A stretch of DNA of 38,921 nucleotides from Candidatus Micrarchaeota archaeon (GTDB lineage: Archaea; Micrarchaeota; Micrarchaeia; Anstonellales; Anstonellaceae), in the NCBI GenBank assembly GCA_043806415.1, contig JAZDHB010000077.1, positions 1-38,921 of the forward strand. Direction: 5' to 3'. The position numbers were made by a program, and so were the translations under genes. Below the pieces are notes generated by a model. It was not told the DNA's origin and made no database searches. It saw nothing but the letters and a program-made list of their open reading frames with translations. Below are positions 14,985-19,807 of the stretch, piece by piece. How positions within the stretch are numbered: the first letter of the stretch is position 1; each line of letters begins with the position of its first letter.

Positions 14985-16295
14985 ATGGACTGTCTATCCG
15001 ACTCGTTCACCCCCATCGCCGACATCCTCGCCGGCAAAGCCGAGGGCAAGCTCGTCAAGGTCCGGGGATGGGTGCACCGCGCCCGCTCCTCCGGCTCGCT
15101 GGCATTCCTCGTGCTGCGCGACGCGGGCGGCGTGCTGCAGTGCGCCCTGAAAAAGGACGCCGTGGGCGAGAAGACGTTCGAGGCTGCCAAGTCCGCCTAC
15201 ATCGAATCCTCGTGCATGCTTTCGGGCACGCCAAAAAAGGACGAGCGCGCGCCCGGCGGCTGGGAACTGGCGGCCAGCGAATTCGAGTTCATCCACCAGG
15301 GCCAGCCCTTCCCCATCTCCAAGGACCAGTCCACCGAATTCCTGCTCGACGTGCGCCACCTCTGGCTGCGCAGCCAGAAGCTTTCCAAACTGATGAAACT
15401 GCGCCACGCCGCCCTGCGCTCCCTGCACCAATTCTTCGACGAGCGCGCCTTCTTTGAGCTCGCGCCGCCCATCATCACCAAATCCGCCTGCGAAGGAGGA
15501 TCCACCCTCTTCCAACTCGATTACTTCGGCTCGCCCGCCTACCTTTCCCAATCCGGACAGATGTATGCCGAGGTGTTCATGACCGCGCTCGAGAAGGTCT
15601 ATGTGCTCGCCCCCTCGTTCCGCGCCGAGCCCAGCCGCACCGTGCGCCACTTGGCCGAATACTGGCACCTCGAGCCCGAGATGGCCTTCTACAACCAGAA
15701 GATGAACATGCAACTGCAAGAGGATATGATCGTGCACGTCTGCCACGACCTGGGCAAGAACCAGGCCGGGCTGCTCGAGGACATCGGGCGGGACCCCAAG
15801 AAGCTGCTCGCCGTCAAGGGCCCCTTCCCGCGCATGACGTACGAGAAAGCGGTCGAGAAATGCCGCTCGCTTGATTGCAAAATAGAATTCGGCCAGGATT
15901 TGGGCGCGGACGAGGAAGCCGTCCTCACCAAGGACGCGGCCCAGCCCATCTTCATCCACAACCATCTCAAGGAATTCAAGGCCTTCTACATGCGCGAGGA
16001 CCCCAACCATCCGGGCACCGTGCTTTCGGCCGACCTGCTCGCGCCCGAAGGGCACGGGGAAATCATCGGCGGGAGCGAGCGCATCTGGCAGAAGGACGAG
16101 CTGCTCGAGCGCATGAAAGAACAAAACCTTCCGCTCGCCGACTACCAATGGTATGTGGACTTGCGCGAATACGGTTCGGTCCCGCATTCCGGCTTCGGCC
16201 TGGGCATCGAGCGGCTGTGCAAATGGATGTTCGGACTGGACCACATTAGGGATGCCATTCCGTTCCCAAGGACGATCAACCGGGTATATCCGTAA
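14985..16295 (+). CDS. asnS: Asparagine--tRNA ligase
   Basis: OB fold VRGWVHRAR, plus RHLWLRS, ACEGGSTLF, YLSQSGQMY, FRAEPSRTVRHLAEYW, GEIIGGSER and YGSVPHSGFGLGIER. Confidence 0.95.
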   Translation: MDCLSDSFTPIADILAGKAEGKLVKVRGWVHRARSSGSLAFLVLRDAGGVLQCALKKDAVGEKTFEAAKSAYIESSCMLSGTPKKDERAPGGWELAASEFEFIHQGQPFPISKDQSTEFLLDVRHLWLRSQKLSKLMKLRHAALRSLHQFFDERAFFELAPPIITKSACEGGSTLFQLDYFGSPAYLSQSGQMYAEVFMTALEKVYVLAPSFRAEPSRTVRHLAEYWHLEPEMAFYNQKMNMQLQEDMIVHVCHDLGKNQAGLLEDIGRDPKKLLAVKGPFPRMTYEKAVEKCRSLDCKIEFGQDLGADEEAVLTKDAAQPIFIHNHLKEFKAFYMREDPNHPGTVLSADLLAPEGHGEIIGGSERIWQKDELLERMKEQNLPLADYQWYVDLREYGSVPHSGFGLGIERLCKWMFGLDHIRDAIPFPRTINRVYP

Positions 16296-16345
16296 GTCAA
16301 GGCACTTCCAACCCGTTTATATACTACTAACTACCTGATTATTTT

Positions 16346-17821
16346 ATGCCTCTAAGCTATAAACGCCTGTTGAACTTCTTCGGGAAAGAACAACAGAAGA
16401 CCCGTGATAACGGTTTCTTAAATGCCAAACTTCTCGACAAAGTTCCGCCCAAGTTCATCGGCAGCGAACGGATCAGGATAGAACTTGAATCAGATCCCAA
16501 GCGTGCTTCCGGCGCGGCTTCCCGCTACCAAGAACTGGTAGCCAAAATCGTCTCAAAGCTTGAATCGGGATTGTCTGAAAAATGCTTTATAGAACAGCTA
16601 TGGAAGTCTGTCAGCTCTTCCGTCCATTTCACAGAAAAACAAGCCTCAGGTTTTCTGGCGGATGCACTTGAAGGGGGTTTTGATTGCGATGCCTCGGCGT
16701 TTCTGCTGTATGACGTGGCCCGGGAAATGGGCATCAAATCCAATCTGGTTTCAACCACTAAACACGCGCTGCTCCTGTTCTCATCTTATGCCCTTGAAAC
16801 CACCAACGGGAAGTATTTTCCGGCCAGCGAACTTCATTCGCACTATCCCTATCATGTCGTGCTTGATGACTGGCAGGTGCACTCAATTACCTACGATGCT
16901 CGCGGCACTGTCTATTCCGAGCTCGGCCAATACGAGAACGCCATCTCCGACTACAACAAAGCCATCGAACTGAACCCAAATTGTGCCGAAGCATTCTACG
17001 GCCGCGGCAATGTCTATCTCAACCTCGGCGAACTCTACCGGGCCATCGCCGACTTCACCAAAGCCATCGAACTGAACCCAAAACGTGTCGAAGCGTTCAA
17101 CAACCGCGGCAATGCCTATTTCAGACTCGTCCAATACGACAAAGCCATCAGCGACTACAACAAAGCCATCAAACTGAACCCAAATTATGCCACAGCGTTC
17201 TACAACCGTGCAATTGTCTATTTCAATCGCGAGCGATACAACAAAGCCATCGCCAACTACAAGAAAGTCATCGCACTGGACCCAAAGTGTGCAGGTGTGT
17301 TCAACAACCGTGGCTATGCCTATTCCGAGCTCGTCCAATACAAGAACGCCATCGCCGACTTCACCAAAGCCATCGAACTGAACCCAAATTGTGTCGAAGC
17401 GTTCAACAACCGCGGCAATGTCTATCTCAACCTCGGCGAATACGATAAAGCCATCAGCAACTACAACAAAGCCATCGAACTGAACCCAAATTGTGTCCAA
17501 GCGTTCTACGGCCGCGGCAATATCTATCTCAACCTCGGCGAATACGATAAAGCCATCGCCGACTACAGCAAAGTCTCAGATGTAGACGCGCTCAACAACC
17601 GTGGCTATGCCTATTTCAGACTCGGCGAATACGATAAAGCCATCGCCGACTACAAATTCGTCGCACAGGACCCAATATATCGCTCAGTGTTCTACAGCCT
17701 CGGCCATTCCGGGTACCTTGGGTACATCAGCGACCTCGACCAAGCCGCCGCACTGAACCCAAGATATGCCCCAGCATTCTACAACCTCGCCATTCCCCAT
17801 TACAATCAGCCGCGTGAATGA
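16346..17821 (+). CDS. Transglutaminase-like N-terminal domain plus TPR repeat protein; probable frameshift near the 3' end
   Basis: FDCDASAF...KHALL...ETT followed by about 8-9 TPRs (AFxNRGNxYxxLGEYDKAIxDYNKAIELNP). Visibly more AT-rich than the flanking core genes. Confidence 0.85.
   Translation: MPLSYKRLLNFFGKEQQKTRDNGFLNAKLLDKVPPKFIGSERIRIELESDPKRASGAASRYQELVAKIVSKLESGLSEKCFIEQLWKSVSSSVHFTEKQASGFLADALEGGFDCDASAFLLYDVAREMGIKSNLVSTTKHALLLFSSYALETTNGKYFPASELHSHYPYHVVLDDWQVHSITYDARGTVYSELGQYENAISDYNKAIELNPNCAEAFYGRGNVYLNLGELYRAIADFTKAIELNPKRVEAFNNRGNAYFRLVQYDKAISDYNKAIKLNPNYATAFYNRAIVYFNRERYNKAIANYKKVIALDPKCAGVFNNRGYAYSELVQYKNAIADFTKAIELNPNCVEAFNNRGNVYLNLGEYDKAISNYNKAIELNPNCVQAFYGRGNIYLNLGEYDKAIADYSKVSDVDALNNRGYAYFRLGEYDKAIADYKFVAQDPIYRSVFYSLGHSGYLGYISDLDQAAALNPRYAPAFYNLAIPHYNQPRE
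16890..17660 (+). repeat. Intragenic 102-bp tandem repeats encoding TPR units
   Basis: aaagccatcgaactgaacccaaa and cgcggcaatgtctatctcaacctcggcgaa recur with 102-bp periodicity. Confidence 0.85.
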
Positions 17822-17893
17822 AGCCTTGTCGAATTTCAAGGCAGCCAACCGGCTGAATCCGGGCATCCCGATTCCACTTTTGGAATAGGCGGC

Positions 17894-17995
17894 ATGCTTT
17901 CGAGAAGGCTGGAGCTAGCGCGCGAAATGATTAAGCTTCAGCGCGAAAAACTGGAGCGTCAGCGCAAAAAACCACTTGGCAAGCCAAAAAGGTAA
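17894..17995 (+). pseudogene. 33-aa basic ORF or gene remnant (MLSRRLELAREMIKLQREKLERQRKKPLGKPKR)
   Basis: ATG at 17894, with a stop immediately before the first asnS-tail copy. Below the length cutoff of the ORF track. Confidence 0.35.
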
Positions 17996-17996
17996 T

Positions 17997-19078: not shown

Positions 19079-19266
19079 AGGAATGTTTCGGCCTTGAGCA
19101 CATCCGCGACGCCATCCCGCCGTCAAGGCCGAGCCGGCGCAAGGCTTGGCGGGAATTCCCGCATCGGCCCGCTGGCCGATGGGGCACCGTCGGCTCAAAG
19201 GAGCCGACGATTGCGCCAGCAGGCGAATCAGATTCCCTAAGGACGATCAACCGGGTATATCCGTAA
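19077..19266 (+). repeat. Displaced asnS 3' end (FGLEHIRDAIP / RTINRVYP*) interrupted by a 113-bp hairpin-rich insertion
   Basis: ttcggccttgagcacatccgcgacgccatcccg, then insert 19120-19232, then ttccctaaggacgatcaaccgggtatatccgtaa, whose final 28 nt are identical to the asnS end. Confidence 0.9.
19120..19232. mobile_element. Miniature multi-hairpin insertion (MITE/REP-like)
   Basis: Splits the asnS copy between Pro and Phe codons. Contains five adjacent palindromes: 19128-50, 19149-62, 19162-81, 19188-209 and 19209-29. Confidence 0.6.
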
Positions 19267-19272
19267 CTCGTC

Positions 19273-19554
19273 CTATTCCAGCCACTTATAACCTTGGTTG
19301 CGCCGCACGATCTCGGTGATCTTCACTTCTTTCCCGACCACTGCATAGATGATTCGATACTCGCCCACTCTCAAGCGGTAGAATGGGGGTTCGAACGAGC
19401 CTTGCAGCTTCTTGATGTCTGCCCCGCTGCGGGGCCGGTAGGGGTCTTCTTTCAGCGCATCCCAGCCCCGGCGGATTCTTTTCTGCGCGTCCGGCTCCAG
19501 CTCGTCAAAAGCATGCCGGGCGGTCTTGGAAACCAGGACCAAAAAACCGCTCAT
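19273..19554 (-). CDS. relE: RelE/ParE-family toxin
   Basis: Motifs LKEDPY...DIKKLQG...YRLRVGEYRIIY. Confidence 0.9.
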   Translation of the reverse strand: MSGFLVLVSKTARHAFDELEPDAQKRIRRGWDALKEDPYRPRSGADIKKLQGSFEPPFYRLRVGEYRIIYAVVGKEVKITEIVRRNQGYKWLE

Positions 19555-19733
19555 AACCTACTCACCGGGGCGAATTCCTCATTCTCCAGAATCCACTTCT
19601 GTTTGAGCAAAAATCCATGCATCTTGGCGACTTCCATGAGGTTCTGGAGGATGTCCTGATAGGTCTGACCTTTGGTGCCAAATTGCTTGAGCTGCTCTTT
19701 GGTCTGCATGTCTATAGCGATTGTCGTTTGCAT
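19551..19733 (-). CDS. Putative antitoxin (RHH-like)
   Basis: MQTTIAID...KEQLKQFGTKGQTYQDIL with a 4-bp overlap with relE. A tandem catataatca repeat at 19731-19750 overlaps the start and may be an operator. Confidence 0.8.
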   Translation of the reverse strand: MQTTIAIDMQTKEQLKQFGTKGQTYQDILQNLMEVAKMHGFLLKQKWILENEEFAPVSRL

Positions 19734-19777
19734 ATAATCACATATAATCATTATATCTAATTATATTTAAGCCTTTC

Positions 19778-19807
19778 GTCAACCGGCTGCATCCGTAAGT
19801 TGAGGCA
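19778..19807 (+). repeat. Degenerate terminal asnS-tail copy (VNRLHP*) marking the right boundary of the array
   Basis: tcaaccggctgcatccgtaagttgaggca versus asnS tcaaccgggtatatccgtaagtcaaggca. Similarity extends past the stop codon. Confidence 0.7.

Follow-up and report, generated by a model that had tools for sequence, protein, structure and literature searches.

Small cargo modules stacked behind asnS of a Micrarchaeota archaeon and closed by copies of the asnS 3′ end

Elements that integrate one behind the other at the 3′ end of a gene are the closest described counterparts of the array analyzed here, which lies between the asparaginyl-tRNA synthetase gene asnS and a ribL-like gene of a Candidatus Micrarchaeota archaeon, at positions 16167 to 19807 of a contig of 38,921 nucleotides (nt) (GenBank assembly GCA_043806415.1, contig JAZDHB010000077.1; this whole stretch is called the window). 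In thaumarchaea, 14 of 68 elements are located in 3′-distal parts of protein genes, and arrays arise via a re-used site (PMC6563490). The tycheposon islands of Prochlorococcus are tandem integrations at tRNA genes with partial tRNA copies between them and degenerate remnants (10.1101/2020.12.28.424599). Homologous recombination among tandem elements is documented in two reports (PMC8371274, PMC5812530), the second of which attributes the remodeling of SXT/R391 tandem arrays to RecA. The dif site, with 11-bp inverted arms and a 6-bp spacer, is used by the host Xer enzyme (PMC2958812).

The asnS array resembles the tycheposon and archaeal 3′-end arrays in that the direct repeats are the 3′ end of a target gene that stays intact, newcomers appear to push older units outward, remnants and partial copies occur, and relatives have empty sites. 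A likeness to the SXT/R391 arrays (PMC5812530) lies in deletions and hybrids attributable to homologous recombination between array members. The tycheposon and archaeal elements carry their own tyrosine or serine recombinase and measure several kb or more; in contrast, no recombinase was present in the asnS arrays examined, their units have 0.3 to 1.7 kb, the same boundaries occur across genera, and the target is an aminoacyl-tRNA synthetase gene of a DPANN archaeon.

In integrons, IntI is encoded next to attI, and the cassettes, closed by attC, are mostly promoterless, share one orientation and depend on a common promoter; integrase-less clusters of attC also exist. The asnS array likewise lines up small exchangeable cassettes, with a recombination-site repeat at the end of each one, and had been called integron-like in the preliminary description of the locus. 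This designation was abandoned: no IntI, attI or attC was found, the repeats are direct copies of the coding end of an essential gene, the cassettes have AT-rich boxes as putative promoters of their own, one cassette (RelBE) is inverted, and a hairpin insert occurs only in the tail copy T3. In Streptococcus thermophilus, ICESt1 and ICESt3 are said to be involved in the accretion and cis-mobilization of integrase-less islands at the fda 3′ end. Both cases would have in common that a protein gene provides the att site with its 3′ end, that composite arrays contain internal att copies and that some members lack recombination genes; a helper with a cognate integrase reportedly resides at the same site there, whereas no helper was found at asnS. 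Integrative mobile elements exploiting Xer (IMEX) use the host Xer recombinase at dif, and the asnS array resembles them in having no recombinase in the element and in forming arrays at one site. Unlike the situation with IMEX, the tyrosine recombinases found in the genome carrying the window are three genes for 400 to 479 amino acids (aa), each beside a tRNA gene or a tRNA 3′ fragment, and no Xer-like or Xer-sized PF00589 gene was recognized in this 87% complete genome. The asnS array is best read as a variant of island accretion at gene 3′ ends and not as an integron. A full-text literature search on toxin-antitoxin genes and integrases or islands in Micrarchaeota and other DPANN archaea brought up no paper about the asnS locus.

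Tail copies and shared cassettes behind asnS

The genome carrying the window (G000, with the window as contig C77) is a bin of 119 contigs and 1.27 Mb. Its asnS encodes a class II synthetase to which the proteins of relatives align from residue 15 or 16, and a homologue was present in all 41 genomes of the order searched. The peptide encoded by the tail is nearly invariant across the family, with variable third codon positions. Tail positions are counted from the asnS stop codon, minus being upstream in the coding part and plus after the stop. As noticed in the preliminary description, the asnS terminus recurs in direct orientation between the modules, which was borne out by repeat searches and genome-wide BLAST: significance is strong for three of the copies in the asnS-ribL interval, two others are well supported and two are weak (Table 1). 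When up to three mismatches are allowed, the final 18 nt of asnS occur three times in the window versus 0.01 times expected, a number reached in none of 100 shuffles, and no copy was detected outside the asnS-ribL interval in the assembly, the remaining BLAST matches having E values of at least 0.21. The copies begin 1 to 9 nt past the preceding stop codon, in agreement with the earlier statement that they start within a few bases of a cargo stop, and, for the tail copies as a whole, 5′ ends are concentrated near −130, −60, −32 and −12. What supports the weak copy T1′ is the junction CCGTAATTCTCTTAAA, which is the junction between the asnS stop codon and Doc in the sister species G002. Although its 3′ end is repeated downstream, asnS remains an open frame with a conserved C terminus.

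The asnS loci of 22 relatives were collected and later supplemented with the 6 kb 3′ of asnS in another 80 genomes from the order; ribL starts in relatives were extrapolated from tblastn, and the asnS tail of each genome was searched against the downstream DNA of the same genome. A ribL-type gene is located 3′ of asnS in 18 of the 22 relatives, with a gap of about 33 to 100 nt in 10 of them and of 0.2 to 5 kb in 8. The narrow gap is the empty site and the ancestral state. Copies of the genome’s own tail were detected downstream of asnS in three of the 22 (G002, G023, G021), and two metagenome contigs, L083 and L084, also contain asnS arrays. The 80 further genomes added no cargo array within the 6 kb; three of them possess a short hairpin insert. 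The cargo arrays are mutually independent and restricted to one family. Comparison of the interval across relatives, which had been proposed as a check, revealed a cassette content that is variable and bounded by tails.

Individual cassettes recur in these arrays together with their junctions. MazEF of G023, which belongs to another genus, aligns with the copy in the window from the AT-rich promoter box through the MazF stop codon, and in both genomes a tail from about −66/−64 begins a few bases after this stop; nucleotide identity is 81%, promoter region included, versus 70% for asnS. The stop codon of the Doc partner is followed by a tail from −128/−139 in both G000 and G002, and in both a tail stop codon is separated by a spacer of 7 to 8 nt from the RelE stop codon of the same toxin-antitoxin pair. 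The DUF3800 cassette, first in the array of L083 and second in that of L084, is terminated in both by a shared 3′ untranslated stretch and then a tail from −32/−35. Junctions preserved across arrays indicate that the boundaries are a property of the cassettes, which recur in differing orders and combinations. The earlier claim of discrete, tail-bounded cassettes at a variable asnS-ribL site gains support from these identical junctions in other species and genera and from the other orders of the cassettes.

Other content without tail copies was also encountered between asnS and ribL. A giant open reading frame (ORF) of 1,602 aa fills the gap in G011 (L043/L164 1364-6172), and giant ORFs of 740 and 1,507 aa fill that of another Micrarchaeota (L079 5591-12357). 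A peroxiredoxin-like gene on the opposite strand is present in two species of the genus, G005 (L034 1336-1824) and G003 (L010 2875-3234). The asnS match of G004 (L006) holds one in-frame TAG, for which a sequencing error, a pseudogene or recoding are possible.

Table 1. Features of the asnS-ribL interval in the window, followed by tail copies and inserts at other loci
Feature	Position	Strand	Evidence and remarks
asnS, asparaginyl-tRNA synthetase, intact	14940..16295	+	Pfam tRNA-synt_2, E 2e-72; OB-fold anticodon domain
T0, working asnS tail	16167..16304	+	Last 129 nt plus 9 nt past stop; reference for all copies
Cargo 1, TPR-repeat protein, 491 aa	16346..17821	+	Pfam TPR_1, E 7e-84
Possible degenerate tail stub 3′ of TPR gene	17846..17861	+	15/16 positions match T4; weak; absent from preliminary description
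Small ORF, 33 aa	17894..17995	+	No Pfam family matched
T1, tail copy −38..−4, no stop codon	17997..18031	+	91% identity over 35 nt; E 2e-7 genome-wide
T1′, tail end plus stop, left edge of Doc cassette	18042..18058	+	Repeat family D12; weak alone
Cargo 2a, Doc/Fic toxin remnant, in-frame internal deletion	18087..18251	+	BLASTP versus G002 Doc
Cargo 2b, Doc partner, 40 aa from MEKSG, overlaps Doc gene end	18223..18345	+	80% identity to G002 partner
T2, displaced tail −128..+8 with TGG>TGA and V>A	18354..18489	+	136 nt, 85% identity, E 9e-38
Cargo 3, antitoxin (18556-18768, 70 aa) and MazF/PemK (18761-19078)	18556..19078	+	Pfam
T3L, cassette-borne 5′ tail part −66..−31	19087..19122	+	74% over 46 nt to T2; 86% to G002 tail
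INS, 110-nt hairpin-rich insert ending in CAGA, splits T3	19123..19232	+	Minimum free energy −62 kcal/mol; 3-4 hairpins
T3R, resident-type 3′ tail part −30..+3	19233..19269	+	95% identity; 28/28 versus T0 at 19239-19266; E 5e-9
Cargo 4, ParE/RelE-type toxin (19273-19554) and DUF7557 antitoxin (19551-19751)	19273..19751	−	Pfam
T4, most distal stub −19..+12, adjoins ribL-like gene	19779..19807	+	83% over 29 nt
ribL-like cytidylyltransferase gene (RibL-type candidate), conserved right flank	19826..20341	+	Pfam CTP_transf_like, E 1.7e-14
Array of G002, sister species (asnS 91% aa identity)			asnS / intact Doc and partner / tail / RelBE / tail / contig end
Array of G023, another genus (asnS 74% aa identity)			asnS / MazEF / tail
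Array of G021			asnS / 126-aa ORF / 15-nt stub; weak
Array of L083			asnS / DUF3800 / tail / archaeal ATPase and toxin-antitoxin-like pair / tail / ribL
Array of L084			asnS / helix-turn-helix and nucleotidyltransferase (AbiE-like) pair / tail / DUF3800 / tail / Doc / tail / ribL
Hairpin insert of G150	L267, first 300 nt past asnS stop		
Hairpin insert of G077	L282, first 300 nt past asnS stop		
Hairpin insert of G092	L318, first 300 nt past asnS stop	−	
C101 array of G000	C101:15175-18781 (L232 2176-5781)		Gene-tail copies at 17101-17184 (84 nt, 81% identity) and 17991-18118 (128 nt, 92%)

Mosaic tails, a strain polymorphism and a hairpin insert

T3 is chimeric, with a 5′ part (T3L) that is closer to the tail of G002 than to the tail of G000 itself, to which its identity is 69%, and a 3′ part that agrees with T0 at every position of the stretch compared (Table 1). 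TGAGCACAT is found both in T3L and in the tail that follows MazEF in G023, and the displaced tail of G023 is chimeric too, having a foreign, decayed 5′ part and a 3′ part that resembles its own asnS end. These mosaics support the view that, for MazEF, the 5′ portion of the following tail is cassette-borne and the 3′ portion resident, as a crossover inside the tail predicts. The preliminary description had inferred that every cassette brings a replacement asnS tail; in this form, the proposal is unsupported. Among the 129 positions compared, 19 are unlike in T0 and T2. Third codon positions account for 16 of these (binomial P = 7e-6), and the codon changes comprise 16 synonymous and 2 non-synonymous ones, the TGG>TGA change among the latter. 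This third-position excess indicates that T2 diverged under coding constraint as a formerly working gene end.

The public groundwater sequencing run X1, for which contigs only are available, was the sole run with part of the stretch, and its uncovered parts are uninformative; runs X2 and X3 held only scattered short low-depth pieces and were left unused. A contig of 23.3 kb from X1, with a depth of 43 and 93 to 95% identity to the window, covers positions 15800 to 16120 and then 18354 to 20300 with 46 letters between, and has the order asnS, MazEF, T3 with its insert, RelBE, T4, ribL. The net loss of 2,187 nt is the exact period from T0 to T2, containing TPR and Doc. This is a variable cassette content at the strain level, bounded by tails, of the kind the preliminary description had in mind. 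The working asnS tail of X1 is the orthologue of T2, with TGG where T2 has TGA, and equals T2 over −128 to −19 but for four differences, followed by a G002-like end. In G002, the displaced tails are 96 to 99% identical to the working tail of the same genome although the cassettes are 21 to 25% diverged from those of G000, which suggests gene conversion among the tails of G002.

The insert that splits T3 at −31 (INS) is a member of a low-copy repeat family in G000, with nhmmer copies on the contigs C16, C58, C26 and C52. Both displaced tails of G002 hold a related 99-nt insert at −66. Three genomes of another family, G150, G077 and G092, have hairpin inserts of 38, 35 and about 100 nt, respectively, after the asnS stop codon, which end in CAGA and are not accompanied by cargo; a second tail from −31/−32 then still encodes the last ten residues, FPRTI(N/T)R.YP, with synonymous changes. 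In two of these inserts, the sequence after the stop codon is an inverted repeat of the tail start. The CAGA/TTCCC junction of INS is common to all three, which makes four genomes from two families. A hairpin-CAGA-tail pattern gave one match in each of 4 of 176 genomes, always 3′ of asnS, and none in the reversed control; it was written from the same four cases, and the count shows exclusivity alone. Matches to Y1_Tnp were obtained for two genes in G000, one gene in G023 and three regions in G092 above the cutoff, with a weak adjacent fragment in the last, and for none in G002, G150 and G077. The hairpins beside the Y1 genes of G000 are unlike INS and not followed by CAGA. A search of Rfam with positions 16000 to 20000 yielded no match and ARAGORN found no tRNA in the window, so that INS is no known RNA family or tRNA-like att site. 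The hairpin element could have been the vehicle to begin with, could act as a recombination site or could simply be carried along.

Repeats related to INS, GC-rich and with multiple hairpins, are situated at C16:6797-6934, C58:4038-4172, C26:1-105 and C52:20200-20270, with weaker matches elsewhere, and belong to no Rfam family. An intein or intron reading of the inserts, which have 33 and about 38 stop-free codons, was rejected: they are too short, are members of a repeat family of the genome and do not occur in the working gene.

Recombination within the tail and alternative explanations

Tandem accretion and remodeling of integrase-less cassettes by recombination inside the asnS tail, without a recombinase in cis, is the probable explanation for the array. 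The asnS-ribL junction would be a docking site at which modules of 0.3 to 1.7 kb are stacked by recombination within the last approximately 130 nt of asnS. Each event would leave asnS with a complete coding tail and displace the older tail, whole or 5′ truncated, downstream, so that every module would end in a tail copy. A module flanked by tails could be deleted by recombination between the two, could move as a circle carrying one tail, and could reach another genome by copying from a related array, with the shared tail providing the homology. The circular intermediate, the enzyme and the direction in which each event ran are what we infer. Host homologous recombination might be responsible, or a site-specific enzyme acting in trans with a preference for the region near −31. 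Homology-driven exchange is supported by the mosaics, the homogenized tails and the exact one-period polymorphism, and a preferred site is supported by the common −31 breakpoint. The earlier argument that the variable copy lengths favor homology over a fixed core agrees with the mosaics and the apparently homogenized tails of G002, but the clustered 5′ ends and the −31 breakpoint in four genomes fit a preferred site. Type II toxin-antitoxin pairs, which constitute most of the cargo, would resist loss, and this may be a reason why they remain.

Several observations weigh against tail recombination as the explanation. Cargo arrays are rare, with 3 in the 102 other genomes of the order plus the 2 metagenome contigs, and other MazF loci of the order are without flanking repeats: MazF homologues occur in 18 of 176 genomes, and among the 13 testable loci, such repeats were found only at G023. 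The excess of MazEF identity over that of asnS is modest. The cassettes of G000 and G002 are 76 to 79% identical at the nucleotide level, below the 86% of asnS, and vertical descent with loss would suffice within this clade. The mosaic of T0, T2 and the X1 tail is incompatible with one simple single crossover in either direction and, because no single crossover explains it, repeated exchange among the tails is likely. Homologous recombination would be inefficient between tails that are 70 to 85% identical or 15 to 35 nt long. No circular or excised form was seen in the data, which are contigs only and unable to show rare forms or circles. No recombinase was found in any array, and no single recombinase family is common to all array-bearing genomes, which are 71 to 90% complete.

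The statement in the preliminary description that the window contains no integrase or transposase was corroborated by the lack of matches to PF00589, PF00239, PF01797, PF07282 and PF01867 on C77, and a six-frame search of C77 with PF00589 at E ≤ 0.01 revealed neither an integrase gene nor a fragment. A tblastn search with two integrases of G000 had no match in the Micrarchaeota asnS loci gathered before the extension by 80 genomes, the other arrays included. As for a tyrosine recombinase acting in trans, the proposed search did yield the three genes of G000, none of them on C77 and none of a kind common to all array genomes. G000 also has two Y1 transposases and a Cas1, all outside of C77, and no serine recombinase was found in it. 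G002 has two tyrosine recombinases on other contigs, and G023 and G021 gave no PF00589 match in assemblies that are only 73% and 82% complete, respectively. The three tyrosine-recombinase loci of G000 (C116:3300-4785, C48:3700-4554, C64:1005-2500) are ordinary tRNA-targeting integrated elements. The integrase on C116 is located beside an aspS-like gene and was considered as a candidate for targeting synthetase tails; it was discarded, a tRNA gene intervening and the aspS tail not being duplicated.

The main rival is decay of integrase-bearing elements, viruses or plasmids, that once used an att site at the asnS 3′ end and left toxin-antitoxin genes and att scars behind, with modules that were never mobile by themselves. 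The literature documents, for archaea, 3′-distal integration in protein genes and arrays at one site (PMC6563490) and, for tycheposons, tandem integrations parted by partial tRNA copies with degenerate remnants (10.1101/2020.12.28.424599), and such elements would also account for the clustered 5′ ends and for a −31 breakpoint in four genomes, as would be expected from a fixed att core. G000 does contain tyrosine recombinases, but all three reside by tRNA genes, and neither C77 nor the other arrays probed with the two integrase queries gave an integrase gene or remnant; the two genomes without a PF00589 match, G023 and G021, point the same way within their limited completeness. The interval had no blastn match in distant mode to the PLSDB plasmids or the INPHARED phages, and a search for the asnS-tail peptide in viral contigs produced 21 pattern matches, none of which was confirmed as a viral contig with an asnS tail. 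Above all, identical cassette boundaries across genera and array positions are unexpected from independent decay. Weakened by these boundaries and by the lack of integrase remnants, decay is an unlikely origin of the array.

That a hairpin-ended element inserted at −31/−32 with replacement last 10 codons, carried the cargo between its ends and was the vehicle, the longer tails being secondary, appears quite improbable. Candidates for such a vehicle are an IS200/IS605-like element that is non-autonomous and a single-strand recombination site similar to attC. The inserts of G150, G077 and G092, which end in CAGA ahead of a coding second tail and share this junction with INS, are in accordance with it, as are the restriction of the pattern to the sites behind asnS in 4 of 176 genomes, the inverted repeat of the tail start in two of them and the two Y1_Tnp genes of G000. 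The pattern was, however, derived from the four cases themselves; such a hairpin is lacking in T1, T2 and T4 and also in the G023, L083 and L084 tails, the insert of G002 is at −66 and ends in CTGA, and the relatives of INS elsewhere in G000 are not beside asnS tails. Y1_Tnp was found in none of the three genomes G150, G077 and G002, and the hairpins next to the Y1 genes of G000 differ from INS. An artifact, with either strain variants mis-assembled at the tails or the asnS end duplicated only locally and without mobility, is very improbable. Repeats can mislead assemblers in a bin of 119 contigs and 87% completeness, and the part comprising TPR, T1 and Doc is present in the G000 assembly alone. 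The tail copies, however, are only 76 to 94% identical with a longest exact stretch of 28 nt, the contig from X1, a different sample, confirms in one piece the succession asnS-tail-MazEF-T3-RelBE-T4-ribL, the architecture recurs, with other cargo, in assemblies made independently, and a local duplication leaves the foreign cargo, the low GC content and the chimeric tail unexplained.

For DPANN archaea, with their very small genomes and little-understood gene acquisition, the asnS locus is a concrete and repeatable route, in which the last codons of an essential conserved gene serve as a shared landing pad for the same small toxin-antitoxin or defense-type modules in different genera. If the modules move without an integrase of their own, this would be a cassette system distinct from integrons, and duplicated gene tails would be a simple marker for recent acquisitions in uncultured archaea. 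In two families, a fixed codon boundary of asnS bears the hairpin-CAGA insert, which is a defined substrate for finding the enzyme. Should ordinary island decay be the origin, the locus would still be the first worked example found in Micrarchaeota in which an aminoacyl-tRNA synthetase gene is the site of serial accretion.

Cargo modules and a second gene-tail array

The list of modules given in the preliminary description, TPR, a Doc remnant with a partner, antitoxin-MazF and RelBE, was verified by Pfam and BLASTP. By its composition the interval appears foreign, with a GC content of 0.45 to 0.59 versus 0.61 to 0.69 in the flanks. The TPR gene, with a GC content of 0.47 to 0.53, is missing from the close strain X1. 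The Doc remnant aligns only to residues 2 to 18 and 93 to 133 of the intact Doc of G002, which has 133 aa and matches Pfam Fic; residues 19 to 92, including the Fic motif, were lost. The Doc partner in the window is intact. MazF/PemK matches PemK_toxin with an E value of 1.7e-11 and 44.7 bits versus a cutoff of 23.1, and its antitoxin has a weak VAPB_antitox match. In the fourth module, ParE_toxin was matched with 29.6 bits versus a cutoff of 23, and the partner matches DUF7557. In these two pairs, toxin and partner genes overlap by 4 to 8 nt. From these domain matches and gene arrangements, MazEF and RelBE/ParDE are predicted to be type II toxin-antitoxin pairs, and Doc a remnant here and intact in G002. 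The AT-rich elements that most modules were thought to possess could be assigned, by eye alone, to the regions 5′ of TPR, MazE and the RelB-like gene.

The genome was also scanned for duplicated 3′ ends of other core genes, as had been suggested, and the self-comparison of G000 uncovered a second array on C101 (Table 1). It begins with a gene for 158 aa (C101:15175-15651), a core gene present in 23 of the 26 genomes searched. A PIN_2 pair and a Doc gene are located between the tail copies, and a pair of MazE type and PIN (VapBC type) lies beyond. In none of 11 relatives were tail copies of this gene detected within 1.2 to 1.5 kb. Its Doc is only 36% identical to the Doc of the asnS array, so that the C101 array is no copy of the asnS array. 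With due reserve, a more general view may be put forward as a tentative possibility: Micrarchaeota might capture cassettes without a dedicated integrase in cis, the coding 3′ end of an essential gene (asnS or the C101 gene) being a portable recombination site. Self-promoted cassettes, mostly for toxin-antitoxin or defense functions and carrying a piece of the tail, would be inserted, excised, shuffled and exchanged between genera, and the hairpin-CAGA structure at −31 may be the seeding or catalytic-site structure.

Two further direct repeats were present in G000. One copy of the repeat C5:4082-4247 versus 5882-6048 is the 3′ end of a long ORF with a Por_Secre_tail domain, with an AAA_14/DUF4143 ATPase gene between the copies, and one copy of the repeat C23:11463-11633 versus 12855-13013 is the 3′ end of a long ORF. 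Both could be additional gene-tail insertion sites or the ends of paralogues. The Cas1 gene of G000 is at C50:15509-16366 and, together with a short-period repeat array at positions 17499 to 18054, probably represents a CRISPR locus.

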